Source: Magnetococcales bacterium (lineage in GTDB: Bacteria; Pseudomonadota; Magnetococcia; Magnetococcales; JADFWT01). From it: a stretch of 64,000 bases of DNA. The translations under genes were made by a program, and so were the position numbers. Numbering within the stretch: position 1 is the stretch's first letter; each line of letters begins with the position of its first letter. The stretch spans positions 27,752 to 91,751 of the forward strand of contig JADFWT010000001.1 in the NCBI GenBank assembly GCA_015233785.1, in the 5' to 3' direction. The notes beneath the pieces were generated by a model. The model searched no databases, was not told the DNA's origin, and saw only the letters and a program-made list of their open reading frames with translations. Of the stretch, positions 19,718 through 39,195 are shown one piece after another.

Positions 19718-22087
19718 TCAATTTGTCGTCAACGCCTTAAAAACCTTCTCCGCACCAGGTGGAATGCTGGTGAGATGCAGCTGCAACGTCCCCGCCTCTT
19801 CATCCTGGGCCATCACCTTGCCGTAGAGCTGATCGGAGATAGAGAGACCATCGGCATCAAACAGCTCCAGTTGCAAATTGGTCAGACGCCGCGCCTTGAG
19901 ACGGGTTGCAATCTCCAAGAGCTTACCGTCCATGGCGCTGATACGACCGGCATGACGCGCCTTATCACTCCGTTTGCCCTCCAGAACCGCCATCATCACC
20001 TCCGGGCCATTCTCCAGAAACTTTAACTCAGGAGGCCTCGGCTCCGGCAACTGAATGCCGTAAAGGCCTCGAATACCGCCAATCAGGTAGATGGGAACCG
20101 GCTCGGGAACCCCCTTTAAGGAGACCCGCCATTCATCATCGATGCGGGCCAGATTGTTGCACCCCTTCAGGGTGGTCTCAGAGATCAACACCTGCCCACC
20201 AATGGTTTGCGACTCCACCCGTGCCGCCAGATTGATGGTCGCCCCCACGACGCCGTACTTGGCCCGCAGATCCGAACCGATATTTCCAGCTACCACCGAT
20301 CCGCTGTTGATGCCAATCCCCATGGCCGCTTCGGGAAAGCCACGAGCACCGAACTTGGCATTCACCTCCGGCATCGCTTTCTGCATCTCCAGGGCGCAGG
20401 CCACCGCCCGCTGGGGATCATCCTCATGGGTAACCGGCGCGCCAAACAGCGCCAGAATGCCATCGCCAAGGAACTCAATGATGGTGCCGCTATATTTCAG
20501 GATGATCTCGGTCATGCGCTCCAGATAGATGTTGAGCATGGAGATCACCTCTTCCGGCGGCAAGCGCTCGCTAATGGCGGTGAAGCCCCGCAGGTCGGAC
20601 ATCATCACCGTCACCTCCTTCTGCTCACCCCCCAGACGCAACCCCTCGGGTCGATCCAGAATCGATGCCACCACCTCATCGGACATATAGCGCCCAAAGG
20701 TCTTGCGAATAAACAGGTTGGCCCGATTCAGCCCCTCATTGAGGTGCTTCTGCTCAAACAACATATGCTCCAACTCTTTGTTGAGCTGACCCTTCTCCTC
20801 CGTGGCCTGCTCGGCACTCTCCAAAGCCTTCTGCAACTCCTCTTGCGTGTGTTTGCGCTCCACCGCCACCTGCAACACAAACGCCAGTTGGTCGATCACC
20901 TCACGCGCCTCATCGGTGATCTGTATCGCCCCTTCCAGATGGAGAAAAAAGAGCGCAAAAACAGTATCACGCCCCGGTGAGAAGAGCGGAATCAACAGTC
21001 GTGCGCCATCCAGATCTTCGGGAAACTGCTCCTCATAGCCATGCTGGTGGTGCACCTTCCAACTACTGCGATCCTGAGAGAAGTAACGCATGAACTGGAG
21101 GGGGAGCATCACCACTTCGCCCGCATAGCCGCTCTCGGCACTCAGACGAAGCCCCTGACCATTGTCGCGAAGGGTGTAGAACTCCATGCCGGCGGCGGGA
21201 AGCATTCGGCGAGTAATCTCCAGAAGCGCTTCCACAATCTGGTCAAACTCCCGGTGGGCAACCATCGCCTCTTTAATATCCCGCAACATATCGTTGAGCG
21301 TGGTCAGCCGTCGCACATCGGTACTATCTGCCGCTTTCAGATAGAGCCCGCAATCCAATTTTTTCAGGCGGCTGAAAATCTCGGGGACCAGGTGACCGGG
21401 AATAATGGAGCCGTGCTGGGGGGCTATCATGCCGAGCTCCAGCTTCTCCAGCTTCAAAAGCCCATTGAGCAGCACCTCTCGGCTAGGCATGTAGTGCTCG
21501 TGAAATGGGCGCATCGCCTCAAAATAGTCGGCATCCCGAGCCACCAATGTCCAGTCGTCGGTAAAGCCGCCAAACAGATCGCTGGAGAATAGAATGCGAC
21601 TCTCCTCATCATAGGTGCAGAACGCCCCAGGAAAGTGCAAATAGGGGGTGAAGACAAATTTCAGCCGACGACTGCCAAGATCAAGATGCCAGCCGTGATC
21701 CTGCTCGATACACTTTAATGGCATTTTGAGATCATAATGCTTAAGCAGTACGTTGGCCCGCCAATGGCTGAGAAGATAGGCATCATCCCGCGTCACCATG
21801 GCGTCAATGGTGGGCATGATGGCTGTGATGTCGGGATCCTGATGCTGGCAGAGAAAATATCGAATATTACTGAATTCGGTAATCTTCTTGATCTTTTCCA
21901 GGGTGTGATCAAAGGTGAGCTTGGAGCCGGGATCAAACAGAACCGATTGATCGCCGTTCTCAATCAGATAGGCGTGGCACTGAAAAGGATCCCCAGGAAG
22001 ATAGTGGCCAACCCACCAGGTGCGATCTGCAATCTCAATGGGATGATCGGCGGAGGCGTATTGAATGTGATCTAAAGGGTCGCTCAT
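19718..22087 (-). CDS. Class III nucleotidyl cyclase with N-terminal metallo-beta-lactamase/flavodiiron-like domain and GAF-like linker (cyclase 1)
   Basis: The ORF is open to 22171, but I prefer ATG 22087 (MSDPLDHIQY). The N-terminus reads WWVGHYL...CHAYLIENGDQSVLFDPG...LCQHQDPDITA...HFPGAF...SSDLFGG...APQHGSII. The catalytic domain reads VTVMMSDLRGFT...IIEFLGDGILALFGAP...KYGVVGATINLAARVES. Confidence 0.85.
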   Translation of the reverse strand: MSDPLDHIQYASADHPIEIADRTWWVGHYLPGDPFQCHAYLIENGDQSVLFDPGSKLTFDHTLEKIKKITEFSNIRYFLCQHQDPDITAIMPTIDAMVTRDDAYLLSHWRANVLLKHYDLKMPLKCIEQDHGWHLDLGSRRLKFVFTPYLHFPGAFCTYDEESRILFSSDLFGGFTDDWTLVARDADYFEAMRPFHEHYMPSREVLLNGLLKLEKLELGMIAPQHGSIIPGHLVPEIFSRLKKLDCGLYLKAADSTDVRRLTTLNDMLRDIKEAMVAHREFDQIVEALLEITRRMLPAAGMEFYTLRDNGQGLRLSAESGYAGEVVMLPLQFMRYFSQDRSSWKVHHQHGYEEQFPEDLDGARLLIPLFSPGRDTVFALFFLHLEGAIQITDEAREVIDQLAFVLQVAVERKHTQEELQKALESAEQATEEKGQLNKELEHMLFEQKHLNEGLNRANLFIRKTFGRYMSDEVVASILDRPEGLRLGGEQKEVTVMMSDLRGFTAISERLPPEEVISMLNIYLERMTEIILKYSGTIIEFLGDGILALFGAPVTHEDDPQRAVACALEMQKAMPEVNAKFGARGFPEAAMGIGINSGSVVAGNIGSDLRAKYGVVGATINLAARVESQTIGGQVLISETTLKGCNNLARIDDEWRVSLKGVPEPVPIYLIGGIRGLYGIQLPEPRPPELKFLENGPEVMMAVLEGKRSDKARHAGRISAMDGKLLEIATRLKARRLTNLQLELFDADGLSISDQLYGKVMAQDEEAGTLQLHLTSIPPGAEKVFKALTTN

Positions 22088-22424
22088 GACTAACGAACAG
22101 CTCCTGATTGCACAGTAAAGCTCTACCGGCACGACCACACTTTGCGCCGACGGACTTGCCTCCCCCCACAATCTGGCTGCATCAATTCATACCATGAAGC
22201 GAAGCCTTCCCCTCTTTCGGCCCCAGCATAACTCCTGCATGATTATGAACCATTTATTATTATTGTCGGATCATACAGAACATGAGATAAAACGACCACT
22301 TTTTTGTGACGTACCTTCCGGTTTCATCCATTGCAGACCCTGATGGTTCAGGAGAGACTACCCTCTACTTTCAGTTATGGAGCGACCTCCTGACAACCAC
22401 CCTTCAAGTCATTGATCCTCTACC

Positions 22425-24653
22425 ATGGCAACGCCTCCCACTCCCACGACACTCATTGAGCTATTCCACCTGGGCGTAGAACACCACCATGCCGGACGAC
22501 TCCCAGAAGCGGAGACACTCTACCGGCAGATTCTGGAAGCCGACCCCTTGCAGGCCGAAGTGTGGCATCAAATAGGCCTGCTTGCCTACCAGTTGGGCCA
22601 GCCCCAACAAGCGACCCAACTGATCGGAGAAGCCCTGCGCCTGCGCCCCGACGATGCCGCCGCCCATTGCAACATGGGCAACGCCTTGGCCGACTGCGGC
22701 GCGTGGGATCAAGCCGTGGCACACTTGCACCAGGCAACCACCTTGCAGCCCGCCATGCCGGAAGCCCATCTCAATCTGGGCAACACACTGCGCAGGCGCG
22801 GCGGACCAGGGGATCTGGAGGCCTCCCTGGAGAGCTGTCAAGCGGCCATCCGGCTGCGTCCAGCCATGCCGGAAGCCCACCTGAACTGTGGCAATGCCTT
22901 GAAAGCGTTGGCGCGTTACGATCAAGCCGTCACAGCCTTTGGCAGAGCGATCCGGTTGGCCCCCGATTATGCCGATGCCTACAGCAATCTCGGCAGCACG
23001 CAACAAGCGTTAGGCCAATTGGATGAGGCCATTGCCAATCATCATCATGCCATCTCCCTAAATCCCAACCAGGGACTCTTTCATGGAAATCTTGGCCATG
23101 CATTGCGGGAGAAAGGGCTACTTGAACAAGCACTTAAAAGCTTCCGCACCGCCGCCACACTGAGCCCGGACCAGGCCAAAGTTCATGACGATCTTGGTCA
23201 AATTCTCTCGCAACTGGCATGCCCAGACCAGGCCCTGGCCTGCTTTGAGACCGCCCTGAAACTGGAGCCGGATAGCGCTCACCTCCTCCAGCAGATGGCC
23301 CTACAACTCAACGATATGGGGCGTACCGAAGAGGCGCTGACATCGCTCCAACAAGCAGTGGCATTGGCCCCAGACCGCCCTGAACTACACGCCTCCTTGA
23401 TCTTTACCAAAGACATGACGCCGGGTATTGAGATACAGGCTCAACAAACAGAGCGACAACGCTGGGTGAAGCGCTACTGCTCCAAGGTCCATGCCGGGAC
23501 GCACCACCCTAACAATCCTGACCCGGCACGGCGATTACGAGTCGGCTATGTCTCTGCCGATTTTCATCTCCACTCGGCAGCCTCTACCTTCGGGGCCTGC
23601 CTGCTGCACTACGATAGAGATCAATTCGAACTGTACGCGTACGCCAACAACCGCACACGCCCCGATCAACCGGATGATGCCGTCACCGAAAAGTTTCGGC
23701 GCTCGGTGGACCACTGGCGGGATATCGCCCATCTGGACGATGATGCCCTGGCCACTTTGGTTCGCCGAGACCGCATTGATATTCTGGTGGATCTCTCCGG
23801 TCACTCCACCGGCAACCGGCTGGAGCTCTTCGCCCGGCGTCCAGCCCCTATTCAATGCACAGGCTGGGGCTACATCCAGGGAACCGGCATGAAGACCATC
23901 GACTATCTGATTACAGATCCAGTGATTCTTCCTCCGATTCAGCGTCCAACAATTACGGAAGAGGTACTGGATCTACCTTGCGGCGTGCATCTGCAACCCC
24001 TTGGAAAATGGCCGGAACCTGCGCCCATTCCAGCCTTGAAGCGTGGCTTCATCACCTTTGGAACCTTCCACCGCACCGACAAGATCAACGCCAAAACACT
24101 CAAGCTCTGGGCCAAGGTTTTGGCAGCGGTTCCCCATTCGAGACTTCTGATCAAAATTCCCAAAAATAGCACCGATTTTTTTGGGGGCTATTATCGGCAG
24201 AGCTTCAAGAGTCACGGCGTTGATCCTCAACGTATTGAGCTTTTAGGGGCCACCTCTCAATTTGATCATCTGGCCTGCTTCAATAAGGTGGATATCGCCT
24301 TGGACCCCACGCCGCACTGTGGCGGCGTTACATCGCTGGAGGCACTTCGCATGGGAACGCCGGTAGCAACGCTCTGGTGCGAGACCATCGCAGGCCGGCT
24401 CTCCGCATCATTTAACGCCACCCTGAACTTGGCATCCTGGACCGCAGAGTCCGAGTCGCAATTCATTGAGATTGTTAAGATAAAATCATCCGATATTTCA
24501 AACCTATCCAAGCTAAACAGCAGCCTTCGAGAGCGCTTTGACCGCTCTATCCTGGGAGATCATAAGCTCTATATGCACCATCTGGAGGCACTCTACCGGC
24601 AGATCTGGCAACGATGGGTAGCCGACCATCTCCCCAGCCATGACGCAAGCTGA
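22425..24653 (+). CDS. TPR-GT41 (OGT-like) glycosyltransferase, paralog 5 (subfamily B)
   Basis: 742-aa ORF with variant motifs RVGYVSADFHLHSAASTFGACLL and DIALDPTPHCGGVTSLEALRMGTPVATL. Confidence 0.85.
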   Translation: MATPPTPTTLIELFHLGVEHHHAGRLPEAETLYRQILEADPLQAEVWHQIGLLAYQLGQPQQATQLIGEALRLRPDDAAAHCNMGNALADCGAWDQAVAHLHQATTLQPAMPEAHLNLGNTLRRRGGPGDLEASLESCQAAIRLRPAMPEAHLNCGNALKALARYDQAVTAFGRAIRLAPDYADAYSNLGSTQQALGQLDEAIANHHHAISLNPNQGLFHGNLGHALREKGLLEQALKSFRTAATLSPDQAKVHDDLGQILSQLACPDQALACFETALKLEPDSAHLLQQMALQLNDMGRTEEALTSLQQAVALAPDRPELHASLIFTKDMTPGIEIQAQQTERQRWVKRYCSKVHAGTHHPNNPDPARRLRVGYVSADFHLHSAASTFGACLLHYDRDQFELYAYANNRTRPDQPDDAVTEKFRRSVDHWRDIAHLDDDALATLVRRDRIDILVDLSGHSTGNRLELFARRPAPIQCTGWGYIQGTGMKTIDYLITDPVILPPIQRPTITEEVLDLPCGVHLQPLGKWPEPAPIPALKRGFITFGTFHRTDKINAKTLKLWAKVLAAVPHSRLLIKIPKNSTDFFGGYYRQSFKSHGVDPQRIELLGATSQFDHLACFNKVDIALDPTPHCGGVTSLEALRMGTPVATLWCETIAGRLSASFNATLNLASWTAESESQFIEIVKIKSSDISNLSKLNSSLRERFDRSILGDHKLYMHHLEALYRQIWQRWVADHLPSHDAS

Positions 24654-24762
24654 TCGTGGAATCATAAGGCCCATCTCTTTAAACGACTGAAAAGAACGCT
24701 TAGGATGAGTGCCTATCGAACCCATAGACCGTTCACCACCGCTGGAATCATCCGAGCCCACC

Positions 24763-26988
24763 ATGCCCACATCGCCCCACTTGCCTACCCCGGAAGAAGC
24801 ACTCCAACGCGCCATCGAACACCATGAAGCGGGGCATCTCACGGATGCAGAAGCGCTCTATCGCCAACTCCTGACCACGCACCCCCAACACGCCATGGCC
24901 TGGCATCGACTGGGACTGCTGGCGCTTCAGGTGGGACAGCCCCAGCAAGCCTCCCAGTTTATCGGCGAGTCCCTGCGCCTGGAGCCCAACGATGTCGCCG
25001 CCCTCTGCAACATGGGCCATGCCCTGGCCAGCTTCGGTGAATTCGACACCGCCATCACCCATCTACAACAGGCCACAGCCCTGCAACCAAACATGCCCGA
25101 GGCCCACCTTAATCTGGGTGAATTCCTACGTCTACGAGGAGCCGTTGGAGATTTGACGGCGTCGGAAGCCAGTTGCAGAGAGGCCATCCGCCTGCGTCCC
25201 AGCATGCCGGAGGCACACAATAATCTTGGCACGCTCCTCAAAGAGAGAAAACGTTACGGTGAGGCGGTCGAGGCCTTTGAAAAGGCGCTCCGCTTGGCCC
25301 CGAAATATGCCGACGCCCACACCAATCTCGGCACGACCTATGAGGCAATGGGACGTCTGGACGAGGCGATTGCCAGCCACAAGAAGGCCATTGACATCGC
25401 CCCTGAAAGCGGTCTGTATCACAGCAATCTAAGCCATGCTCTGATGACCAAAGGAGATCTGAAAGCCGCCAGAGAAAGCGGCGAGATGGCGGTTAAGCTA
25501 CACCCCGATTTGGCAAAGATTCACGCCAACCTTGGGCAGGCCCATATTCGTCTCGGCAGGCCCGATCAAGCGCTCATCTGCTTTCAAAAGGCTACCGAGC
25601 TTGAACCCAATCACGCCACTTATCTCAACCAGATCGGTGCCAATCTGGCCGATATGGGGCGCTGCACGGAAGCACTGGAGCCCTTAAGACGTGCATCCGC
25701 CATGGATCCCGGCAACCCGGAACTACATAATGCGCTGATCTTCTTTCTGGATATGACCCCTGGCGTCCAAACCGGTGATCATCAGCAAGAGCGACAGCGA
25801 TGGGTGGAACGCTTCCTGGCGGACACGGTTCCGTTTGGAAAGCACCATAACGATCCAGACCCACAACGCCCGCTTCGGGTGGGGTATCTCTCCTCCGATT
25901 TTCACAGCCACTCGGCAGCCTCCACTTTCGGAGCCTGTCTGCTGCACTACGATCGAACGCAATATGAGCTGTTCTGCTACGCCAACAATCAGCAGGGAGT
26001 CGGTAAGTGCGAAGATGAGGTGACCAATCGATTCCGTCAGTCGGTGGATCACTGGCGAGAAATCTCCCATCTGGACGATGAGGAAGTGACCCAAATGATT
26101 CGCTCGGATTGCATTGATATTCTGGTGGACCTATCCGGCCACACCACCGGCAACCGGCTTCGGGTCATGGCCCGACGTCCGGCCCCGATTCAATGCACCG
26201 GCTGGGGCTATAATCTCGGCACCGGGCTCTCCGCCATCGACTATCTGGTGATCGACCCGATCATGCTCCCCCCGGAAGAGCGCCCCCTTTTTGCCGAACA
26301 AGCGATGGATCTCCCCTGCGGTATCCATCTGCAACCGTTAACCGATTGGCCTGAACCAGCTCCGCTCCCGGCCCTGACCCATGGTACCATCACCTTCGGC
26401 TCGTTTAACCGCACCTGCAAAATCAACCCGGAGTTGCTGGCCTTATGGGGCCGACTGCTGGTCGCTGTTCCCGAATCGCGCATGCTCTTCAAAATCCCCA
26501 AACTGGAGACCGACTTCTACCTCAACTACTATCGTGAGGTGCTGGCTTCCCACGGCGTGGAGCCGCAACGGGTGGAGGTGCTGGGATCTACTTCACAATA
26601 TGAGCATCTGGCAGCCTTCAACCAGGTGGATATCGCCCTGGATCCCATCCCTCAAGGAGGCGGCATCACCTCGCTGGAAGCACTGCGTATGGGCGTGCCG
26701 GTCCTGACGTTGAAATACCCCACCATCACCGGGCGTCTGACCGCTTCGTTCTGCCATGCTTTGGATTTGGAGGATTGGGTCGCAGAGCGCCCGGAGGCCT
26801 GGATCGCCATCGCCCAAAAAAAAGCCCAAGATCTCGATGCTCTGGCTGCGCTTCGACGGGGACTTAGAGTGCGCTTTGACGACTCCATACTCGGCAATCA
26901 TGCCCTCTATATGCACCACCTGGAGCGACTCTATCGACAGATGTGGAAACGCTGGTCGGCTGGCCAATCAGAGCGTGCCCAGCTTTAA
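24763..26988 (+). CDS. TPR-GT41 (OGT-like) glycosyltransferase, paralog 6 (subfamily B)
   Basis: The ORF is open from GTG 24709. ATG 24763 (MPTSPHLPTPEEALQRAIEHHEAG) fits paralog N-termini better. Motifs: RVGYLSSDFHSHSAASTFGACLL and DIALDPIPQGGGITSLEALRMGVPVLTL. Confidence 0.8.
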   Translation: MPTSPHLPTPEEALQRAIEHHEAGHLTDAEALYRQLLTTHPQHAMAWHRLGLLALQVGQPQQASQFIGESLRLEPNDVAALCNMGHALASFGEFDTAITHLQQATALQPNMPEAHLNLGEFLRLRGAVGDLTASEASCREAIRLRPSMPEAHNNLGTLLKERKRYGEAVEAFEKALRLAPKYADAHTNLGTTYEAMGRLDEAIASHKKAIDIAPESGLYHSNLSHALMTKGDLKAARESGEMAVKLHPDLAKIHANLGQAHIRLGRPDQALICFQKATELEPNHATYLNQIGANLADMGRCTEALEPLRRASAMDPGNPELHNALIFFLDMTPGVQTGDHQQERQRWVERFLADTVPFGKHHNDPDPQRPLRVGYLSSDFHSHSAASTFGACLLHYDRTQYELFCYANNQQGVGKCEDEVTNRFRQSVDHWREISHLDDEEVTQMIRSDCIDILVDLSGHTTGNRLRVMARRPAPIQCTGWGYNLGTGLSAIDYLVIDPIMLPPEERPLFAEQAMDLPCGIHLQPLTDWPEPAPLPALTHGTITFGSFNRTCKINPELLALWGRLLVAVPESRMLFKIPKLETDFYLNYYREVLASHGVEPQRVEVLGSTSQYEHLAAFNQVDIALDPIPQGGGITSLEALRMGVPVLTLKYPTITGRLTASFCHALDLEDWVAERPEAWIAIAQKKAQDLDALAALRRGLRVRFDDSILGNHALYMHHLERLYRQMWKRWSAGQSERAQL

Positions 26989-28759: not shown

Positions 28760-30388
28760 ATGCCAAATTTTGGCCCTATTACATCAAAAACCATTTTTGA
28801 ACATCTATGCGCCTTTCTGGATGGCCTTCCCACGCCATCCACCCTGCTTCTCAATTTTACAGATAAGCGGCGCGGCGGTCTTCTCCATCGTCGGCTATTC
28901 AATGGTAGTACGGCCCGCATTGAGTTCTCTCTGACCATCCTTACCGCCATTTTTGCACTTTCCTTTGGGATCATCCTCTACCTTCAGGGGATTAAAATTG
29001 AACAACTCAGCGCCATGCTATTTTCCCGTGGTCTTGAGAATCTTGGACAAGAGGCGCTGGCAAGAGCCAATTTTTTGAATCATGCCGCCTGGGTGCTGTT
29101 CTTATCGATCCCTGGCATTGGATTTATCGGCGGATTGAAGCGCAAATTGTTTACGTTGCGCCTTATGTATATTGTTGACGTGATGAAAAAGATCACCGAT
29201 GGCGATCACACGCAACGCATCCACATCAGCCCCGGCAATCAAAGCATTCTCTATACCCATATCGGTCGGATGATCAACACCCTGACCGACACCCTCAACA
29301 AAGAGGAAGCTGGACGGGAACAGGCCAATGCCAAACTGCTGAAATCCCTGGACCAAGAGCGGGCCACTACCCAACGCCTGGACAAGGCCAACCGCGTCAT
29401 TCGTCACACCTTCGGGCGCTATATGTCTCCAGATGTCATGGAGGCTATTCTGGATCGACCCGACGGCCTGAAGCTGGGCGGGAAAAAAATGACCGTTACC
29501 GTCATGATGACCGATCTGCGTGGCTTCACCTCCATCAGTGACCGCATGGATTCGGAACAACTGCTTTCCATGCTCAACATGTACCTGGAGGTGATGACCA
29601 AAATCATCCTGGACCATAAGGGCACGATCATCGAATTTCTGGGGGATGGCATTCTCATGCTGTTTGGGGCGCCTTTCAATCGCCCAGACGACCCCCAACG
29701 CGCCGTGCGTTGCGCGCTGAAAATGCAAAAATCCATGGAACAGGTCAACCGCAGAAACCGCAAACACGGCTTTCCCGAATTGGCCATGGGGGTGGGCATC
29801 ACTACTGGAGATGTGGTGGCCGGTAATATTGGTTCCAATATACGCAGCAAATATGGCGTGGTGGGTACAAGTATCAATTTGGCAGCCCGGATTGAGTCCC
29901 TCACGGTAGGAGGACAGATCCTGATCTCAATGAATACCTACCTCGCATGTGAAAATCTACTCCGCATTGGCCAGCAGTTCGACACCACCCCAAAGGGATT
30001 TAAAAAACCCATCGCCATCTATGAGGTGACCGGAATCGGCGGCACGTATGATCTCTATCTGGATGTCACAAAAAACGAGCATCTCGCCCCCGTTTCCCCA
30101 GCCAAGATGGTCAGGTTCAGCCTATTGAGGAACAAATACCCTGACGCCATCTGCCATGATGGCTGGCTCACCAGCCTGACCCTGCCCAATGCCGAAATCC
30201 GCACCATCACCATGCTGGATGAGCGCAGTGATATTCAGATACAGCTTTTTGACAATCGCGGGGTCTTTGTCAGCGATCAACTCTACGGAAAAGTCACAGC
30301 GGTGGATAGAAAGAAGAAGATCCTTGAGGTCACCTTCACCTCGGTTCACCCCGATGCACGCGCCTATATAGAGAGTGATCGTTTTTGA
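28760..30388 (+). CDS. Membrane-anchored HAMP-like class III nucleotidyl cyclase (cyclase 2)
   Basis: 542-aa ORF with GGAGAG 5 nt upstream of the ATG. There are two hydrophobic helices (FSLTILTAIFALSFGIILYL, AAWVLFLSIPGIGFIGGL) and a HAMP-like linker. The catalytic domain reads VTVMMTDLRGFT...IIEFLGDGILMLFGAP...KYGVVGTSINLAARIES. Confidence 0.85.
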   Translation: MPNFGPITSKTIFEHLCAFLDGLPTPSTLLLNFTDKRRGGLLHRRLFNGSTARIEFSLTILTAIFALSFGIILYLQGIKIEQLSAMLFSRGLENLGQEALARANFLNHAAWVLFLSIPGIGFIGGLKRKLFTLRLMYIVDVMKKITDGDHTQRIHISPGNQSILYTHIGRMINTLTDTLNKEEAGREQANAKLLKSLDQERATTQRLDKANRVIRHTFGRYMSPDVMEAILDRPDGLKLGGKKMTVTVMMTDLRGFTSISDRMDSEQLLSMLNMYLEVMTKIILDHKGTIIEFLGDGILMLFGAPFNRPDDPQRAVRCALKMQKSMEQVNRRNRKHGFPELAMGVGITTGDVVAGNIGSNIRSKYGVVGTSINLAARIESLTVGGQILISMNTYLACENLLRIGQQFDTTPKGFKKPIAIYEVTGIGGTYDLYLDVTKNEHLAPVSPAKMVRFSLLRNKYPDAICHDGWLTSLTLPNAEIRTITMLDERSDIQIQLFDNRGVFVSDQLYGKVTAVDRKKKILEVTFTSVHPDARAYIESDRF

Positions 30389-30452: not shown

Positions 30453-32444
30453 GTGGATCCATCGCAACCGATGAGCCTAGCCGATGCCCTACAGTCAGGC
30501 ATCTCCCACCATCAAGCCGGTGATCTCCAACAGGCCGAATCCATCTACCGACAGATACTGGCTGCCGATCCCAATCAAGCCGATGCTTTGAACCTGCTTG
30601 GATTAATCGCCTTACAGGTGGAAGCCTTTGATCAGGCCATTCCTCTCATTGAAAGGGCCATTGAACTCCAACCCAATGAGGCCGAAGCCCACGGCAATCT
30701 CGGCAACGCCTACCGAGAGACCGGTCAATTGAACAAGGCCGTCGCCAGATATCAGAGGGCGCTGAAACTGAAGCCCGATTTTTCCGATGGTTACAATAAC
30801 TATGGCCTGGCCCTCCAGAAGATGGACCAACAGACCCAGGCCGAGGCGCAATTTCGCCGCGCCATCGCCCTGAACCCGAACAACCCAAAACTCCACAACA
30901 ATCTCGGCGTTACCTTGGCCGCCCAGAACCGTAACAATGAGGCGCAACAGAGCTACCGGGAAACCCTGCGCCTGGACCCTCAATTCGTCGGGACCTATAA
31001 CAATCTGTGCCTGCTTCTCCAGGATGCCGGCGAGCTGGATGAGGCGCTAAAGTGTGGCCGCAAGGCGATTGATCTTGCCCCGGAATACGCTGATGCCTAC
31101 GACAATGTGGGCAATGTACTCCGCAACCTTGGGCAACTCGACGAGGCGTTACAGAGCTATCGCAAGGGCCTGAAGATCGCCCCCAACCTAAACATCGCCC
31201 GCCACCTGATCAACACCATGCTCTATCATCCGGCCACCCGCCCGGAAGCACTCTTTCAGAACTGCCAATCTCAGATTCGCGCCGCTTTGCCGCCGCAAAT
31301 AAAACCATTGACCCATGACGCCAAAACGCTCTCCAACCACCAGACCGGCCCTCTACGTATCGGCTACCTCTCGGCGGATTTTCGCAATCATCCGGTGGGA
31401 CACAATGTGCTGCCACTCATCCGCCATCACGACCCCAACGCGGTAGAGCTTTTTCTATATGCAGAACCTACCTGGCGGGATGATGTGACCAAGCAGTTCG
31501 AGAAAGCTGCCCATCACTGGCGACCGACCCACGGACTGAACGATGCCCAACTGGCGGACATGATCCGCGCAGACGGCATCCAGGTCATGATCTATCTGGC
31601 CACGGGATTTGACCAGAACCGACCCGGTATCGCCGCCTATCGACCGGCTCCGGTACAGGTGAGTTTTCACAGCGGTGTCACCAGCGGTCTGCAAGAGATG
31701 GATTACTGGCTGACCGACGAGGTACTCCACCCCAAGGAGGCGACTCGGGAGCTGTTCACCGAGCAGCTCTTCCGGCTACCTATCTTCTACAACTATCCCA
31801 TCCCGGATCAGGCACCCCCAGTCGGACCGTTGCCGGCGGATCGGAACGGTCACATCACCTTTGCCTCCTTTAACGCAACCACCAAGCTCAACCCGGAGGT
31901 GATCGCCTGCTGGTCCAAAATTCTAACGGCACTACCCGATGCCCGGCTGATACTCAAGCACCACAACAAACTGGGCAACCCCTCGCTACGCAAACTGATT
32001 CTGACACGCTTTAAGAGCCATGGGATTGATTCAGAGAGCGTGCAACTAATCAGTGCCCATGAACCACTTCAGGATCATTTAGCACGTTACCACGAAGCCG
32101 ATATCGCCCTGGATCCATTCCCCTTCACCGGAGCCACCACAACCTTTCAGGCCCTCTGGATGGGGGTGCCGGTGATCACTCTGCTGGGGGAACGTTTTGT
32201 GGGTCGCATGGCCGGAGATATTATCTGCCACGCAGGCCTAAAGACGCCCCTGACCACTGACAATCAGGAAGGGTATGTTGAAAGGGCGCTTACACTGGCC
32301 GGAAAACGGGAAGAGCTACGGGAAATGCGTGCGACCATGCGACAACGCCTTATGGATTCGCCTCTATGCGATGGCCCCGGATATGCCCGGAACCTTGAAG
32401 CGGCCTATCGCACCATGTGGCAAGCTGCGGCGAAGCCCGAATAA
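30453..32444 (+). CDS. TPR-GT41 (OGT-like) glycosyltransferase, paralog 7
   Basis: 663-aa ORF with a GTG start preceded by AAGGAAG. Motifs: RIGYLSADFRNHPVGHNVLPL and DIALDPFPFTGATTTFQALWMGVPVITLLG. Confidence 0.85.
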   Translation: MDPSQPMSLADALQSGISHHQAGDLQQAESIYRQILAADPNQADALNLLGLIALQVEAFDQAIPLIERAIELQPNEAEAHGNLGNAYRETGQLNKAVARYQRALKLKPDFSDGYNNYGLALQKMDQQTQAEAQFRRAIALNPNNPKLHNNLGVTLAAQNRNNEAQQSYRETLRLDPQFVGTYNNLCLLLQDAGELDEALKCGRKAIDLAPEYADAYDNVGNVLRNLGQLDEALQSYRKGLKIAPNLNIARHLINTMLYHPATRPEALFQNCQSQIRAALPPQIKPLTHDAKTLSNHQTGPLRIGYLSADFRNHPVGHNVLPLIRHHDPNAVELFLYAEPTWRDDVTKQFEKAAHHWRPTHGLNDAQLADMIRADGIQVMIYLATGFDQNRPGIAAYRPAPVQVSFHSGVTSGLQEMDYWLTDEVLHPKEATRELFTEQLFRLPIFYNYPIPDQAPPVGPLPADRNGHITFASFNATTKLNPEVIACWSKILTALPDARLILKHHNKLGNPSLRKLILTRFKSHGIDSESVQLISAHEPLQDHLARYHEADIALDPFPFTGATTTFQALWMGVPVITLLGERFVGRMAGDIICHAGLKTPLTTDNQEGYVERALTLAGKREELREMRATMRQRLMDSPLCDGPGYARNLEAAYRTMWQAAAKPE

Positions 32445-33390: not shown

Positions 33391-33574
33391 CGACTATAAA
33401 TGATTCTCACTGAATATTCTGCACTGCCTGCCGGCATACCTTTCCTCACACACTCTGTTGACATACCCCCGATGTTGACGTGGTGACCCCTTAATCTGCT
33501 GATGGTTTACCCTATACATCCTCTATTTTCAGCACGTTTATGACATTTTGTCGATATTATTCAGCAACAATCCA

Positions 33575-34246: not shown

Positions 34247-34703
34247 ACGCACCCCCCACACAATACATTACTCGCCATATCGTCTATTAATACGACAATA
34301 TGATTAATGACACAATCATCAAACGGATGCATACCTGCCTAGATATACAAATTCCTGCCTTTTTTCGCTTCTGAATAGGGTTTTTAGAATACCTACTATA
34401 GCCAAGATCGGGTATTCTTATGCGAGGTCTCGACTATGGATACTCAAGATTTGAGCGCATGTCAGCCTCCCATTAGGTGAATTGGGGTAGTGCTTCAGAA
34501 TTTTAGCATATATAGATTATCAAAATTTTAACTATAGAGGATTTTCAATAATTTACGGGATTTTCAGACATATGTGATACGCCTATTACGTACCCACTCT
34601 ATACAGCTAAACTGGAGGACCTTCGCGATCATCACCATGACGGTCTCCATCAAATGCAACCAGTTGCTGCACCGCTTTCTTTGGGAACGATTGGCAGCGC
34701 CCG

Positions 34704-37052
34704 ATGTCAGAAATGAACGCCACTCTGTTGAGGAGTACCCTCATGCATGACGAAAACAGACAGGAAACCGGGCGCCAGGTCACTCTGAAAGAGGCACTGG
34801 AGATGGCGGTTCAACACCATCGTGCCGGTGAGTTGAACCAGGCGGAAACGCTCTATCGCCAAATTCTGAATGCCGACCCCAGGCAGGCTGATGCACTCCA
34901 CCTTCTCGGTGTGATCGCCCATCAGGCGGAACAGCTTGATCAGGCCGAACGACTGATGAAGCAAGCCCTGGAGTCACAACCGGACATGATCGGCGTCAAC
35001 GGCAATCTCGGCGGTGTCTATTGGGATCGAGGGCTGCTGGATGCGGCCATCCGCTGCTACGAAGCCGAACTATGCCTCCAGCCGAATGATATGGGCATGC
35101 TCAACAATTTAGCTGTGGCCCTCACCCAACAGGAGCGCGCTGAAGAGGCCCTGGTACATATTGAACACGCCTTGAAGATCGAGCCCGATAATTTCAGCGC
35201 CCACATCAACCACGGAAAAGCTCTCAAGGCGGTCGGCGACTATTCCGCCGCTGAACTGGCCTTCCTTGAAGGGGCGAAGATCCAGACCGAATCGGCCGAA
35301 CTCTACAATAACTTAGGCCAACTTTTTCAAGAGCAGAGCATCCTGGACCGGGCGCTGGAGTGCTATCAAAAAGCACTGGACCTCGATGATGGCGATCATC
35401 CCGATCCACATAACAATCTGGGTACGGTTCTGGTGGCTATGGGACGCCCGGAAGAGGCGGTGGCGCATTACCAACACGCCTTGGATATGCGCCCCAACGA
35501 CGTCATGATTCTGCGCAATATCGGCCACGCCTTTCGCGATACAGGCAATATGGAAGAAGCCATCTCCAGCTATCGGGCCGCTCTGGAGCGCCACCCCGGC
35601 AATGCGGATATTCACAACGATCTGGGCGCTATCTATGTCGAGATGGGACGCTATGATGACGCTGAACCCCTCTATCGGGCAGGATTAATGCTCAACCCCC
35701 GCCACACGGACATGATGAGCAATCTGGGACTGCTGATGGTGGAGTTGGGACGCACAGGAGAGGCGGTGGCCTGCTACCAAAAGGCGCTGACACACAACCC
35801 CACGCCGCACGTAGTAAAAAGCTTGCTGGGATCACTTCTCTACCTGCCGGACATGAATCCCATTGTGCTGTTCGATGCCTTCCGGCGTCATATGGCGCAC
35901 ACGCTTCCGGAGCAGAGCCCGCTCACCCCCAATCCTGAGCCACACCCCAAACGACTACGCATTGGCTACCTCTCCAGCGACCTGTGCGACCACCCTGTGG
36001 GGCACAACGTAGGACCGCTCATGGAACACCACGACGCTGAACGCTTTGAAGTGTTCTGCTACGCGGAAACCACCAGAGAAGATGCCATTTCGGCCCGTTT
36101 TCAGGAACATTGCCACCACTGGCTGGAGATAGGCCACCTCAACGACCGACAGATCGCCGAACGCATTCACAGCGACGGCATCCATATCATGGTCTACCTT
36201 GCAGGGCTGTTTGACAACAATCGTCTCCTCGTGGCGGCTCACCGCCCGGCCCCGGTTCAGGTCAGCTTCCACAGCGGTGCAACCACCACACTACAGCAGA
36301 TGGATTACTGGCTTACCGATGGTGTGCTACACCCTGAGGAGGCAACCCTGGAGCGCTTTTCAGAGCGCCTCTTTCGACTGCCTATGTTCTACAACTATCC
36401 TATCCCGGACCATGCTCCCCCCATCTCGCCACTACCTGCCGATGAGAAGGGACACATTGGCTTTATCTCACTCAACAACCCCTCCAAAGTGAATGATGCA
36501 GTGGTGGATCTGTGGTCTTCCATTCTGCGCAGAATCCCCGATGCCACCCTGACGTTGAAATATCGCAATCGCTATGAAACCACATCACTTAGAGCTCGGC
36601 TGGGCAAAGCATTCAAACAGCGCGGCATCGATACCCGACGCATACTCTTTCTCAGCGCCTTAGACCAACTGGATGAACATCTGGCACTCTATGATCAGGC
36701 TGATATTGCCTTGGACCCCTTTCCATTCAGTGGGGCAACCACCACCTTCCAGGCCCTCTGGATGGGCGTACCGGTGATCTCGTTGCTTGGTGATAATTTT
36801 TGCGGACGAATGGCAGCGGATATTCTGGTGCACACCGGCCTTGAAGAGCTGACGGCTAAAGATAAATCCTCCTATATCAATCTGGCAGTAACATTGGCCA
36901 ATGACCGAAACAGACTACGCAAACTGCGTGCAAGCATACGGAAGCAGGTCATGGCATCACCGATCTGTGATGGGAAAGGATATGCTCAGAGTATGGAGAA
37001 AGCTTATGAAGAGATGTGGAAGAAACGAATACTTGGGCAGGTTCCGGAGTAG
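34704..37052 (+). CDS. TPR-GT41 (OGT-like) glycosyltransferase, paralog 8
   Basis: 782-aa ORF, the longest TPR array in the set. Motifs: RIGYLSSDLCDHPVGHNVGPL and DIALDPFPFSGATTTFQALWMGVPVISLLG. Confidence 0.9.
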   Translation: MSEMNATLLRSTLMHDENRQETGRQVTLKEALEMAVQHHRAGELNQAETLYRQILNADPRQADALHLLGVIAHQAEQLDQAERLMKQALESQPDMIGVNGNLGGVYWDRGLLDAAIRCYEAELCLQPNDMGMLNNLAVALTQQERAEEALVHIEHALKIEPDNFSAHINHGKALKAVGDYSAAELAFLEGAKIQTESAELYNNLGQLFQEQSILDRALECYQKALDLDDGDHPDPHNNLGTVLVAMGRPEEAVAHYQHALDMRPNDVMILRNIGHAFRDTGNMEEAISSYRAALERHPGNADIHNDLGAIYVEMGRYDDAEPLYRAGLMLNPRHTDMMSNLGLLMVELGRTGEAVACYQKALTHNPTPHVVKSLLGSLLYLPDMNPIVLFDAFRRHMAHTLPEQSPLTPNPEPHPKRLRIGYLSSDLCDHPVGHNVGPLMEHHDAERFEVFCYAETTREDAISARFQEHCHHWLEIGHLNDRQIAERIHSDGIHIMVYLAGLFDNNRLLVAAHRPAPVQVSFHSGATTTLQQMDYWLTDGVLHPEEATLERFSERLFRLPMFYNYPIPDHAPPISPLPADEKGHIGFISLNNPSKVNDAVVDLWSSILRRIPDATLTLKYRNRYETTSLRARLGKAFKQRGIDTRRILFLSALDQLDEHLALYDQADIALDPFPFSGATTTFQALWMGVPVISLLGDNFCGRMAADILVHTGLEELTAKDKSSYINLAVTLANDRNRLRKLRASIRKQVMASPICDGKGYAQSMEKAYEEMWKKRILGQVPE

Positions 37053-37074
37053 GCAATGGAGGAAAAACAAACAA

Positions 37075-39195
37075 TCAGGTAAAGTCCCGCATTTTCTCTT
37101 CCACACGCTGTGGTACCGATGTGAAGTAGACCGTCAAAACCCCCTCACAGACGTCTAAAACTTTACCAAAAAGCTGATCGGAGACCTGTTCGCCACGCTT
37201 GTTGAACAGCTCCACCTTCAGGTTGGTCATACGATCCACATTAAGGGGCGTCGTGATTTCAGTGAGCGGATAGTTAATGGCCGTAATACGACCATCATAA
37301 ATTTCTTCAGCCGCATACTTCCCATCCATGATCATCAGCCGCACCTGATGAGCATAGTGGAGAGGATGCACAACAATCTGGTCCATCTCGGGAAGACGGA
37401 TCTGATAGACCCCCTCGATACCACCCACCTGGAAAACTGAAATCGGCTTGGAAACCCCCTTGGGAGCCACGCGCCACTCGTCATCAATACGCAGAATAGG
37501 GCCACAAGCATTACGGGTGCTCTCAGAGATCAAGATCTGTCCGCCCACGGTCAGAGACTCAATGCGTGCCGTCAGGTTGATGGCATTGCCCACCACGCCA
37601 TACTTACTGCGTTTATCGGAGCCGATGTTGCCGGCAATCACCAGGCCGGTGTTAATCCCTCCGCCCATCACCATTTGCGGATAACCCAGTTCACGATTTT
37701 TCTCGTTTACCTTGGGCATCGCCAACTGCATGGCCAACGCGCAGGCCACCGCCCGCTGAGCATCATCCTCCCTGGGAATCGGAGCACCAAACAGCACCAG
37801 TATACCATCACCCAAAAACTCAATGATGGTGCCGTTGTACTGATGGATAATCTCGGTCATCGCCTCCAGATAGAGGTTCAGCATGGTAATAACATCTTCC
37901 GGAGCCATGCGTTCACTAACCGCCGTAAAGCCGCGCAGGTCGGTCATCATCACCGTCACCTCACGCTGCTCGCCCCCCAACTCCAATCCATCCGGGGTGT
38001 CCAGAATGGTCTTGACCACCTCGTCGGACATATAGCGACCAAAGGTCTTTCGGATAAAGTGGTTGGCGCGGTCCAGCTTTTCGTTGGCCTCTTTCTCATC
38101 CGCCAACGCCTTGCGTACCCGATCATCCATCTCATGACGCTGGATAATCACCGACAGAATCGAGGCGATGGATCTTAGAAAATCTTCATTCTCCTGAGAG
38201 AGCTGCTGACCCACATTCAAGTAGAGATTCATCACACCCAATACCCGCTCATCCGCCAAAATGGGAATGCAGCAGTGTCGGTGGGGAGTCTCCATCTCCA
38301 GGGATTTGATATCATGCCGTGGGTCGTCAAAGTCGGCGTGAATAATCTCACGTTCCAGAGCAGCCCGACCACAGATGCAGCGTCCAAACGGCACCCGGCC
38401 GCAGGTATCAAACAGATGCCGTACATCTTCCGAATAGGCACGCAGCACCAGATCTCCTGTATCTGGATCGGTAATAAATATCGCCCCTTTAGGCTGAACC
38501 TGAAGCCAAGGTAGATAAAAAAGCATGATCAATACTTGGTCCAACTGATCCTGGAGCGGAACCGGCTCCATAGCGGAGTGGAGAAGCATCTGGATCAGTT
38601 GAGAGCCATCCATGGACTGGGTAAGCTCTTTTTCGGTTTTACTCCGCTGAATCATTTCCGCCAGGGTGCCGGCGGCTGTACTGAGAAACACCTCCTCATC
38701 AGAATCGCGCACATGACCCTCAGGAAGATAGAGCGTCAAAACCCCTTGAAGCTCCATATCTTTGGAGAGAATCGGCACACAATAGTGACCATGCGGATGA
38801 ATGCCTTCCACCTGAGTTTCATGGGAATCGTGAGACGATACAAACACCAACTCCTTGAGCTCCGCCGCTTTTCCGCAGAGACATTTTCCCACTGGTATCT
38901 CGGAGCAGGTTTTCACCATATCCGGCAGAAAGTTACGGTGTGCGGTCAGAGTGAGGTTGTTACGTTTCTTATCAAAAAGAAAAATGGCCGCTCGATCATC
39001 CATCAGGGACCAAGAAACACTGAGAATGATGCCCAATGCAATTTCAAACTGCTCCTGAAGAGAGGCGTGGGCTTCAATGCTGGTCTTGAGAAGGGCATTA
39101 ATAGCACGCTGCGACTCATGGTCACGCATCTTGCGCGCCTCTCGCTTTTTTGCCGCAGATCCAGGCCAATTAATTAGATTCATGGAAAATCCCAT
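37075..39195 (-). CDS. GAF-GAF class III nucleotidyl cyclase (cyclase 3)
   Basis: 706-aa ORF. It has two GAF-like domains, each with a C-x7-C-x-C-G-(K/R)-A-A motif and a His/Cys cluster. The catalytic domain reads VTVMMTDLRGFT...IIEFLGDGILVLFGAP...KYGVVGNAINLTARIES. Confidence 0.85.
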   Translation of the reverse strand: MGFSMNLINWPGSAAKKREARKMRDHESQRAINALLKTSIEAHASLQEQFEIALGIILSVSWSLMDDRAAIFLFDKKRNNLTLTAHRNFLPDMVKTCSEIPVGKCLCGKAAELKELVFVSSHDSHETQVEGIHPHGHYCVPILSKDMELQGVLTLYLPEGHVRDSDEEVFLSTAAGTLAEMIQRSKTEKELTQSMDGSQLIQMLLHSAMEPVPLQDQLDQVLIMLFYLPWLQVQPKGAIFITDPDTGDLVLRAYSEDVRHLFDTCGRVPFGRCICGRAALEREIIHADFDDPRHDIKSLEMETPHRHCCIPILADERVLGVMNLYLNVGQQLSQENEDFLRSIASILSVIIQRHEMDDRVRKALADEKEANEKLDRANHFIRKTFGRYMSDEVVKTILDTPDGLELGGEQREVTVMMTDLRGFTAVSERMAPEDVITMLNLYLEAMTEIIHQYNGTIIEFLGDGILVLFGAPIPREDDAQRAVACALAMQLAMPKVNEKNRELGYPQMVMGGGINTGLVIAGNIGSDKRSKYGVVGNAINLTARIESLTVGGQILISESTRNACGPILRIDDEWRVAPKGVSKPISVFQVGGIEGVYQIRLPEMDQIVVHPLHYAHQVRLMIMDGKYAAEEIYDGRITAINYPLTEITTPLNVDRMTNLKVELFNKRGEQVSDQLFGKVLDVCEGVLTVYFTSVPQRVEEKMRDFT

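Follow-up and report, generated by a model that had tools for sequence, protein, structure and literature searches.

Three Cya2-type nucleotidyl cyclases with different sensor domains in a Magnetococcales bacterium

From our analysis of a 64,000-nucleotide stretch of a contig from a magnetotactic-type Magnetococcales bacterium (hereafter the window), three neighbouring genes, named here A (19718..22171, minus strand), B (28760..30388, plus strand) and C (37075..39195, minus strand), almost certainly belong to the Cya2-type family of nucleotidyl cyclases. The proteins are best read as paralogous versions of one output module, a Cya2-type class III (Lys-Thr/IIIb-related) nucleotidyl cyclase, each coupled to a different sensor. 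The module comprises a coiled coil whose end is formed by the cyclase transducer element (CTE; …FGRYMS…), a catalytic core containing a pair of metal-binding Asp, the base-specifying Glu and Gly, the transition-state Asn/Arg and the phosphate-binding Arg/Lys, and a C-terminal beta-barrel of ~120 residues homologous to the extension of Cya2. The coiled coil and CTE would relay the state of each sensor to the geometry of a dimer, and the enzymes would probably convert GTP to 3',5'-cGMP and pyrophosphate. Taken as a whole, we regard this explanation as probable.

Catalytic module and base-specifying residues

The Pfam cyclase domain PF00211 was found in A, B and C (E 2e-26 to 4e-27), and their catalytic modules are mutually 60-67% identical. 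The CTE and catalytic core occupy residues 488-694 of A (20090..20710, minus strand), 214-420 of B (29399..30019, plus strand; from sequence alignment and an AlphaFold model) and 381-587 of C (37435..38055, minus strand). The original prediction proposed Glu at the first specificity position of all three proteins, and its codons are exactly where they had been placed, as GAG at 20476-20474 on the minus strand (E566 of A), GAA at 29633-29635 on the plus strand (E292 of B) and GAG at 37821-37819 on the minus strand (E459 of C). It also held that Asp is replaced by Gly in KYGVVG; formal alignments put this Gly (G640 of A, 20254-20252; G366 of B, 29855-29857; G533 of C, 37599-37597) on Gly562 of Synechocystis Cya2 and the Glu on Glu488, and with phmmer and MAFFT neither position shifted onto a Lys/Asp equivalent. 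When B was compared with PDB chains by phmmer, its IIEFLGDG paired with TIDEFMGDG of Cya2 and its KYGVVG with KYGVVG, while the Glu column holds the adenine-specifying Lys in CyaC (GTVDKFVGD) and P. aeruginosa CyaB (GTIDKFVGD) and the Gly column holds Thr in both (SDFTAIG and MDYTIIG).

Cya2 (sll0646) of Synechocystis sp. PCC 6803 (PDB 2W01; chimera 6FHT), a guanylate cyclase established by biochemistry, is to our knowledge the only bacterial producer of cGMP whose structure has been solved. Its output module, running from the CTE (FGRY) through to the C-terminus, is the one seen in A, B and C. The three proteins are 46-51% identical to Cya2 over 229 ungapped residues (410-638; 49.8% for A and 50.7% for C), which at ~50% is not orthologue level, and the catalytic core is gap-free against Cya2 (MAFFT, Cya2 residues 410-756). 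Every residue of the Cya2 active-site table (D448, R450, E488, D492, G562, N569, R573, K608) is identical in A (D526, R528, E566, D570, K638-Y639-G640, N647, R651, K686), B (D252, R254, E292, D296, K364-Y365-G366, N373, R377, K412) and C (D419, R421, E459, D463, K531-Y532-G533, N540, R544, K579), as are CTE Arg416 of Cya2 and the K-Y before the Gly. The MAFFT alignment thus shows both metal-binding Asp and the transition-state Asn/Arg to be intact, in agreement with the earlier reading. The best PDB sequence matches of B were 6fht (the Cya2 E488K chimera, 2.4e-56) and Cya2 itself (2w01, 2.4e-48), the nearest adenylate cyclase, CyaB, being far weaker (4e-30). These two structures were also the best Foldseek matches of the AlphaFold model (pLDDT 92.3, pTM 0.88; all structure predictions were of monomers), at an rmsd of 1.0-2.6 A, with 1.0-2.1 A for 2w01. 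The next-best solved relatives, the class IIIb adenylate cyclases CyaC of Spirulina and CyaB (E 9e-23 and 4e-30; Foldseek rmsd 1.5-2.1 A), have the same fold and catalytic machinery but carry Lys and Thr in place of Glu and Gly and lack the Cya2-type C-terminal domain.

With the catalytic residues complete in all three proteins and conserved across the clade, it is very improbable that these cyclase-homology domains have lost catalysis and serve in regulation only; degenerate bacterial cyclase domains such as AdvA do exist (PMC13060281), although nothing specific to the trio points to such a state. The three Glu/Gly pairs represent inheritance by paralogy, neither a product of chance nor three independent events, because the modules are paralogous and Glu/Gly is standard in the clade.

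The Glu of Cya2 forms a hydrogen bond with guanine, and the Gly probably adds steric selectivity. The enzyme prefers GTP, and mutagenesis implicates the Glu-Gly pair, which the original prediction had correctly named for it (PMC6005667). A single E488K exchange makes Cya2 an adenylate cyclase, the cross-activity of each variant being minor (PMC5995499). In a mycobacterial adenylate cyclase, changing the Lys and Asp to guanylate-cyclase-conserved residues raises guanylate and lowers adenylate activity (PMC4215837). The reading of the trio as guanylate rather than adenylate cyclases, put forward at the outset, is well supported by homology, since identity to Cya2 (the closest match), all specificity and catalytic residues, and the C-terminal extension are held in common. 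Judging from sequence, A, B and C would likely prefer GTP over ATP in vitro.

It is rather unlikely that the proteins are adenylate or dual-specificity cyclases despite Glu/Gly, making mainly cAMP in the cell. Their annotation is merely generic (adenylate/guanylate cyclase), and two residues do not always suffice to predict class III specificity, as in mycobacterial Asn/Asp and Gln/Asn enzymes. The GTP preference of Cya2 stems, according to a review, from faster turnover and not tighter binding (PMC4284465), which leaves room for some residual use of ATP and makes the ATP/GTP ratio inside the cell relevant. However, the adenine-specifying Lys is missing in the trio and nearly the whole clade, the supporting residues are all as in Cya2, and Cya2 itself follows the residue, taking GTP with Glu and ATP with Lys (PMC5995499).

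PADLOC PycC models also match the catalytic domains (best E 2e-23, 81 bits), as pyrimidine (cCMP/cUMP) cyclases of a Pycsar-type anti-phage system would. We consider this assignment highly implausible: the PycC matches are generic class III cross-matches well below those to Cya2 (168-194 bits), neighbouring effector genes of the cNMP-binding transmembrane or TIR type are absent, and the trio are large sensor-coupled signalling enzymes with the guanine-type Glu/Gly.

The C-terminal extension

Following the catalytic core, each protein ends in a Cya2-type extension, predicted to be a PilZ-like beta-barrel (residues 695-817 of A, 19721..20089, minus strand; 421-542 of B, 30020..30385, plus strand; 588-706 of C, 37078..37434, minus strand). 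Removal of the 118-aa extension of Cya2 nearly abolishes activity (PMC5995499), and the barrels of the trio may have a similar activating role. In hhalign, the extension of Cya2 (residues about 620-745) is matched by the C-terminal domains of all three proteins (98.8%, E 6e-17, 117 columns), at an identity of just 17-22%. The model of this domain from B (pLDDT 86.7) has six strands and a C-terminal helix, and its 14 best Foldseek PDB matches were all PilZ domains or PilZ-containing proteins (E 8e-4 to 1e-2, TM 0.5-0.6). The comparison with PilZ domains covered Alg44, YcgR, BcsA, MapZ and a PA-type single-domain PilZ. The model suggests a PilZ-like beta-barrel devoid of c-di-GMP-binding motifs; RxxxR and (D/N)xSxxG are absent from the family consensus. 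With the cut-off relaxed to E 10, Pfam PilZ still matched none of the three proteins, the domain of B matched no Pfam family, and profile similarity to canonical PilZ was not found, while Cya2's own extension has a faint Pfam PilZ match (E 0.21). PilZ and the Cya2-type C-terminal domain are distinct, because one relative (P0096) carries a genuine PilZ domain downstream of its Cya2-type domain.

Three different sensor inputs

The input of Cya2 is a periplasmic CHASE2 domain with a transmembrane region, whereas the trio have an ODP and GAF-like region, a small membrane anchor, or two GAF domains. The A reading frame encodes 817 aa from a TTG at 22171, although the true start is likely the ATG at 22087, giving 789 aa. 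Its layout is an ODP diiron sensor, a GAF-like region, a coiled coil with the CTE, the Glu/Gly cyclase and the PilZ-like C-terminal domain. The ODP-type sensor domain, of metallo-beta-lactamase fold (residues 63-254; 21410..21985, minus strand), spans the whole PF19583 profile (E 1.1e-59) and matches solved ODPs in the PDB (6qrq, 6e-24; 6qnm/6r9n, 7e-22), with which its HQDPD motif, …H(F/S)PG… His, SxD Asp and PQHG His agree. The sensor of A had been described as diiron-like/GAF; the diiron part stands, but the GAF part was not confirmed, the linker domain (~residues 309-439; 20855..21247, minus strand) matching GAF_3 weakly (E 1.3e-3; profile positions 2-129 of 129) with 19.6 bits against a cut-off of 27. 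This combination of an ODP and a weak GAF-like region is the most unusual point of the trio, and in its nearest relatives the sensor module is joined to a GGDEF diguanylate cyclase in place of a nucleotidyl cyclase. The ODP of Treponema denticola chemotaxis (PDB 6QNM/6R9N, 6QRQ) resembles the N-terminal domain of A over its full length with aligned metal-ligand motifs, but it stands alone and acts on a chemoreceptor, whereas that of A is fused to the cyclase through the GAF-like region. ODP has been described as an oxygen sensor (PMC7666581). Cyclase A would probably sense O2, iron or redox state, because it combines an oxygen-binding diiron (ODP) domain with a GAF-like domain.

Cyclase B (542 aa) matches at 100% identity a protein deposited from a Magnetococcales MAG (P0001) and annotated as 'adenylate/guanylate cyclase domain-containing protein'. 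It consists of a membrane anchor, helical linker, CTE, Glu/Gly cyclase and PilZ-like C-terminal domain. The predicted transmembrane region (28928..29137, plus strand; Kyte-Doolittle) contains one clear helix at residues 57-75 (2.18) and a probable second at 107-126 (about 1.55), separated by a loop of ~30 residues, and would form a small membrane-anchored input. Of the TM-HAMP architecture originally assigned to B, the transmembrane part is borne out, but HAMP was not confirmed at the family threshold, the segment after the helices being HAMP-like by eye only and giving no Pfam match to HAMP.

Cyclase C (706 aa) consists of two GAF domains, the CTE, the Glu/Gly cyclase and the PilZ-like C-terminal domain. 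Its GAF-GAF sensor was recovered in Pfam (residues 67-184 and 237-352; 38140..38997, minus strand; GAF_2 4.5e-25, GAF 7.9e-19, GAF_3 2e-13). Each GAF domain carries an unusual Cys-rich G-x-C-(L/I)-C-G loop with a His/Cys cluster downstream, a motif seen again in other family members, and C would receive its input through these two Cys/His-rich domains. An NKFDE-type cNMP-binding motif was not visible by eye in either.

Genomic neighbourhood and breadth of the family

The window also encodes a cNMP-binding domain fused to an HlyD-family type I secretion adaptor (4490..6373, plus strand; PF00027 4.4e-20, HlyD; TIGR01843 2.9e-79), which adjoins a C39-peptidase ABC exporter (2080-4503) and is possibly a cyclic-nucleotide receptor. 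A separate claim, compatible with the Cya2-type explanation, is that of a dedicated local cGMP circuit in which the trio feeds this adaptor and exporter, which lie upstream, and perhaps the TPR-glycosyltransferase genes around it as well. The presence of a cNMP-binding domain on a secretion adaptor in the same window, and of three cyclase paralogues within 20 kb amid about 15 TPR-GT41 genes, speaks for such a circuit. However, six unrelated genes and ~13 kb separate the adaptor from the nearest cyclase, their orientations differ, and the phosphate-binding cassette of the adaptor, FGEMALLDKTPRSASA (…PRSASA), being of the RSA type, does not distinguish cGMP from cAMP. Two relatives of the cyclases have entirely different surroundings, with neither TPR-GT41 nor cNMP-HlyD genes, and cNMP domains occur on bacteriocin-type exporters more generally, a combination for which NCBIfam has dedicated models (matches to TIGR03896 and TIGR03794). 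A cGMP phosphodiesterase was not identified within the window. The coherent cGMP circuit originally envisaged thus reduces to loose proximity, and we consider it unlikely.

The Cya2-type output module extends well beyond this genome. Glu/Gly occurs in 104 of the 120 best homologues, the Glu and Gly columns are each at least 90% conserved (118-sequence alignment), and the Cya2-type C-terminal domain is present in over 1300 sequence clusters. Among 83 long proteins with this domain, the first specificity position is nearly always Glu and never Lys, with Gly, Ala, Ser or Thr at the second. The closest relatives are REC-cyclase proteins (P0002-P0120) of Magnetococcales, Desulfobacterales (Desulfonema), Ca. 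Magnetomorum and others, which are 44-53% identical over at least 90% of the CTE/cyclase/C-terminal module and mostly Glu/Gly; they mostly take response-regulator receiver input and are annotated generically and uncharacterised. In essence, the Magnetococcales trio adds new members to a family that is already known and widespread, and the view that bacterial cGMP signalling is rare holds for characterised systems but not for the genes, with thousands of clade members in public data.

Base-specifying residues and catalytic core

Three ORFs of the window encode a nucleotidyl cyclase domain of class III (PF00211, E 2e-26 to 4e-27), namely cyclase A (19718-22171, minus strand, 817 aa from a TTG), cyclase B (28760-30388, plus strand, 542 aa) and cyclase C (37075-39195, minus strand, 706 aa). 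A protein deposited from a Magnetococcales MAG matches cyclase B at 100% identity and is labelled only 'adenylate/guanylate cyclase domain-containing protein'. The first 28 codons of cyclase A after the TTG at 22171 (22087-22171, minus strand) look non-native, and the homology to oxygen-binding diiron proteins (ODPs) begins downstream of the ATG at 22087; judged by this, the ATG is more likely to be the true start than the TTG. The first base-specifying position is Glu in all three proteins (A E566, GAG at 20476-20474; B E292, GAA at 29633-29635; C E459, GAG at 37821-37819) and aligns with E488 of Cya2, the guanylate cyclase of Synechocystis sp. PCC 6803; the codon coordinates of the original prediction, which had been made by eye, are right in each ORF. 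The second position is the Gly of a KYGVVG motif (A 20254-20252, B 29855-29857, C 37599-37597), equivalent to G562 of Cya2, and the Lys-Tyr preceding this Gly completes an identical KYG (residues 638-640, 364-366 and 531-533, respectively). 'Supporting' residues were reportedly described by Rauch et al. in 2008. When cyclase B was aligned to PDB chains with phmmer, IIEFLGDG lay opposite TIDEFMGDG of Cya2 and opposite GTVDKFVGD and GTIDKFVGD of the adenylate cyclases CyaC (Spirulina) and CyaB (P. aeruginosa), which places the Glu at the adenine-specifying Lys site of adenylate cyclases; KYGVVG lay opposite KYGVVG of Cya2 and opposite Thr in CyaC and CyaB. The earlier assignment of the specificity positions thus holds both in phmmer against PDB chains and in MAFFT against Cya2.

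Full-length Cya2 was absent from the homologue search, where the listed matches were at most 325 aa, and Cya2 410-756 was rebuilt by joining the PDB alignment to a database fragment of 100% identity (P0270, residues 490-756), which supplied the C-terminal extension. The three cyclases aligned to Cya2 without gaps across 410-638 in MAFFT (identity 49.8% for A, 45.9% for B and 50.7% for C) and were identical to it at D448, R450, E488, D492, G562, N569, R573 and K608, which make up the published Cya2 active-site table (PMC6005667). The catalytic set is therefore complete, with two metal Asp, the transition-state Asn and Arg, and the phosphate-binding Arg (R450) and Lys (K608). This contradicts a catalytically dead domain and agrees with the earlier statement that the metal-binding Asp and transition-state residues (equivalents of D448, D492, N569 and R573) are intact. 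The likeness extends into the cyclase transducer element (CTE; described in PMC5995499), where Arg416 of Cya2 is identical in the MAFFT alignment and the FGRY motif reads (I/V)R(K/H)TFGRYMS opposite VRNTFGRYLT. The best PDB matches were 6fht, a phytochrome-Cya2 E488K chimera (2.4e-56), and Cya2 itself (2w01, 2.4e-48), the nearest adenylate cyclase among the PDB matches being CyaB (4.3e-30). Similarly, a monomeric AlphaFold model of residues 200-542 of cyclase B (pLDDT 92.3, pTM 0.88) returned 6fht and 2w01 as its best Foldseek matches at an rmsd of 1.0-2.6 Å (1.0-2.1 Å for 2w01). No bacterial guanylate cyclase other than Cya2 has, to our knowledge, had its structure solved.

Both the Glu/Gly signature and what it denotes had already been described for Cya2. 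Cya2 was shown biochemically to be a guanylate cyclase whose GTP preference is ascribed to the Glu-Gly pair (PMC6005667), and its E488K variant is an adenylate cyclase, both variants having only minor turnover of the other nucleotide (PMC5995499). Together with the match to Cya2, this biochemistry of the Glu and of E488K makes the prediction that Glu/Gly on a Cya2-like scaffold denotes guanylate cyclases as strong as homology allows. A serious alternative is that A, B and C are adenylate or dual-specificity cyclases in spite of their Glu/Gly; a review ascribes the selectivity of Cya2 to faster GTP turnover and not to preferential affinity (PMC4284465), and the E488K result speaks against this alternative. 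We consider such specificity quite unlikely. The guanylate reading of the original prediction, rather than an adenylate one, accordingly stands at its core as a prediction from homology to Cya2, and the circuit drawn around it is unsupported. Pyrimidine cyclases of the Pycsar PycC type were rejected, the matches to the PycC model being generic (at most 81 bits) and no effector (TM or TIR) adjoining any of the three genes.

The catalytic modules of A, B and C are paralogues of 60-67% identity, and the shared Glu/Gly, judged on these sequences, is beyond chance yet not three independent cases. Glu/Gly was found in 104 of the 120 best homologues, making it the usual state of the clade, and both specificity columns were at least 90% conserved in an alignment of 118 sequences; among Cya2-centred matches it occurred in 75 of 120, the remainder being mainly fragments without one motif. 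The clade is large, with many Magnetococcales and Desulfobacterota proteins, and the input of most homologues is a receiver domain. No specific NCBIfam family was found for A, B or C. Guanylate cyclases have reportedly been predicted in several proteobacterial classes by Ryu et al. in 2015.

Sensor modules

Cya2 carries a CHASE2 sensor and a transmembrane region, whereas domain searches found CHASE2 in none of the three cyclases, whose sensors are ODP/GAF-like (A), a membrane anchor (B) and GAF-GAF (C). They are members of the Cya2 family, not strict orthologues of the CHASE2-TM-cyclase type. The N-terminus of cyclase A matched ODP (PF19583) at 1.1e-59 over the entire profile (1-194 of 194) and PDB chains of ODPs at 6e-24 and 7e-22; its HQDPD, H(F)PG, SSD and PQHG motifs line up with those of solved ODPs. 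This domain of cyclase A belongs to the ODP family and carries its predicted diiron ligand set. PMC7666581 describes ODP as sensing oxygen in the chemotaxis of Treponema. The region following it resembled GAF below the cut-off (E 1.3e-3), so that of the 'diiron-like/GAF' sensor predicted originally the diiron part is borne out and the GAF part is sub-threshold. The nearest relatives of the ODP-GAF-like module (44-53% identity over residues 11-489) come from a Magnetococcales MAG, Aestuariirhabdus and Halopseudomonas (genome contig loci L003, L004 3897-5684 and L005 5896-7779) and carry a GGDEF diguanylate cyclase output (GGEEF), not a class III cyclase. One sensor is thus seen with two second-messenger outputs. 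Among representative genomes and metagenome contigs no further ODP-cyclase fusion was found, the matches being just ODP-GAF-GGDEF or cyclase-only, which is weak evidence because the search was pattern-limited. A modest addition of this work is an apparent exchange of output for the ODP-GAF module, from GGDEF to a cGMP-type cyclase.

In cyclase B one transmembrane helix is clear and a second is probable, and there is no Pfam match to HAMP; of the predicted 'TM-HAMP' sensor, only the membrane part is retained. Its counterpart in another Magnetococcales MAG (P0119, 542 aa, 47% identical; locus L001, 9147-11629) is preceded at a distance of 8 bp by an HDOD/HD-domain gene, which is a possible partner of P0119 and has no equivalent in the window. 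Domain search found the two GAF domains expected in cyclase C (38140-38997, minus strand). Both the unusual Cys loop of these domains, C-x6-G-x-C-(L/I/M)-C-G, and the His/Cys cluster after it (HPHGHYC, HRHCC) were noted, and the loop also occurs in other Cya2-type cyclases (P0282, P0333, P0368 and P0404). These residues suggest that the GAF domains of C may be a metal- or redox-sensing subtype.

A C-terminal barrel accompanying Glu-type cyclases

All three proteins run about 120 residues beyond the catalytic core, the segments being 29-37% identical to each other, and Pfam searches up to E 10 placed them in no family (the sole match was to Nop, for C only, below cutoff at 22.6 against 25.4 bits). 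PMC5995499 describes the C-terminal extension of Cya2 as 118 residues, 'structurally uncharacterized', whose removal brings activity near the detection limit. A profile of the window-type C-terminal domain matched this extension in hhalign (98.8% probability, E 6e-17, 117 columns), and therefore the entire module from CTE to C-terminus is Cya2-like. A stimulating role of the extension is established for Cya2 only and is predicted, by analogy, for A, B and C. Modelled alone as a monomer, the domain forms a six-stranded barrel and then a helix (pLDDT 86.7), and the 14 best PDB matches of the model were PilZ domains or PilZ-containing proteins (4xrn, Alg44, YcgR, BcsA and others; E about 1e-3, TM 0.5-0.6). 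The domain consensus lacks both motifs for c-di-GMP binding, RxxxR and (D/N)xSxxG, Pfam PilZ (PF07238) matched the Cya2 extension at E 0.21 only and A, B and C not at all up to E 10, and hhalign found no similarity to one canonical PilZ sequence. A metagenomic protein of Glu/Ala type (P0096, 537 aa) has a Cya2-type barrel (310-430) and, immediately after it, a separate, canonical PilZ domain (436-522; RRSSR, DFSQDG). On these grounds, we call the modelled fold PilZ-like and do not assign the domain to the PilZ family. The tandem in P0096 could possibly be a direct link of c-di-GMP sensing to a Glu-type cyclase. No paper tying the Cya2 extension to PilZ was found in the literature searched.

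With the C-terminal profile as query, a word-indexed search for homologues yielded chiefly fragments, and an exhaustive search of 1.84 billion representative proteins was more informative, finding the barrel in 1312 clusters (578 at E ≤1e-10), essentially always at the extreme C-terminus. Of the 83 matches that are 400 aa or longer, about 72 have Glu at the first specificity position and none has Lys, and the second is Gly, Ala, Ser or Thr; the barrel thus co-occurs with Glu-type cyclases. It seems also to exist as a small stand-alone protein encoded by candidate genes (P0144, 131 aa, on a contig of 58,953 bp; P0136, 128 aa; P0145, 145 aa; some 30 other short matches): of the 43 barrel matches shorter than 200 aa, 30 start with Met and some are on long contigs. 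Two modest additions are made here: the Cya2 extension is conserved in A, B and C with a predicted PilZ-like fold, and it co-occurs with Glu-type active sites. With its PilZ-like fold, and tracking the Glu-type site across more than 1000 clusters, the barrel offers a functional hypothesis and a marker by which guanylate cyclases could be annotated. The optogenetic tools PagC and PaaC depend on the Cya2 C-terminal extension for activity.

Genomic surroundings and implications

The original prediction had joined the cyclases and a cNMP-binding secretion component into a cGMP circuit. Domain searches confirmed a cNMP-binding domain fused to the N-terminus of an HlyD-type adaptor (4490-6373, plus strand), adjoined upstream by a C39-peptidase ABC exporter (2080-4503, plus strand). 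The pair (2080-6373, plus strand) gave below-cutoff NCBIfam matches to bacteriocin/NHLP-type secretion models (TIGR03794, TIGR03896), which suggest a putative cyclic-nucleotide-gated peptide export system. The adaptor is 13 kb and six unrelated genes away from the nearest cyclase, its binding cassette (PRSASA) does not discriminate between cGMP and cAMP, and the neighbourhoods of two cyclase relatives (L001, L002) have nothing in common with the window; with the neighbours of the two relatives so different, there is no sign of a conserved functional link. No cyclic-nucleotide phosphodiesterase was found within the window, and no paper tying Magnetococcales to cGMP in the literature searched. 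A local cGMP circuit of the cyclases and the HlyD adaptor is possible and unsupported.

Around the cyclases extends a very large array (9082-62629) of some 15 paralogues, each with N-terminal TPR repeats and then a GT41 glycosyltransferase domain (O-GlcNAc-transferase/SPY-like, PF13844), located at 9082-11358, 11355-13538, 13508-15652, 15653-17731, 22425-24653, 24709-26988, 30453-32444, 34704-37052, 39494-41599, 42114-44294 (minus strand), 50262-52163, 54546-56837, 56910-58982, 58975-60723 and 60755-62629. Among them are a TPR-sulfotransferase gene (17744-19714, minus strand), a B12-radical SAM gene (26985-28469, minus strand), an FkbM methyltransferase gene (44419-45354) and a TPR-arginine-methyltransferase-like gene (51862-53904). 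From its gene content, the array resembles a large island for the glycosylation or modification of proteins, and our guess at its targets would be glycoproteins of the flagella or sheath in magnetotactic cocci. At 6 kb from cyclase C is the gene of a receiver-GAF-GGDEF-EAL c-di-GMP protein (45382-48075, minus strand), so that the island has c-di-GMP enzymes as well as predicted cGMP enzymes. Three ORFs had no Pfam match up to E 1 (6600-7595, minus strand, 331 aa; 48846-50237, plus strand, 463 aa; 62754-63776, minus strand, 340 aa).

The output module of Cya2 (CTE, Glu/Gly core and PilZ-like barrel) is a portable cassette with many sensor types, common in Magnetococcales and sulfate-reducing Desulfobacterota. 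Bacterial cGMP signalling is studied in very few organisms, and labels such as 'adenylate/guanylate cyclase' would mask what is probably a source of cGMP in magnetotactic bacteria. Cyclase A, with its ODP link, is a candidate in which to study how gas or iron may control a cyclase. We hold it doubtful, taken jointly, that cyclase A is the first wiring of an ODP (O2/iron) sensor to cGMP and that the barrel is a dedicated allosteric module of guanylate cyclases. If true, the barrel might, for example, have a nucleotide as ligand or be linked to c-di-GMP signalling and not be a passive stabiliser, and this microaerophilic magnetotactic bacterium would have an O2/redox-to-cGMP pathway through cyclase A.
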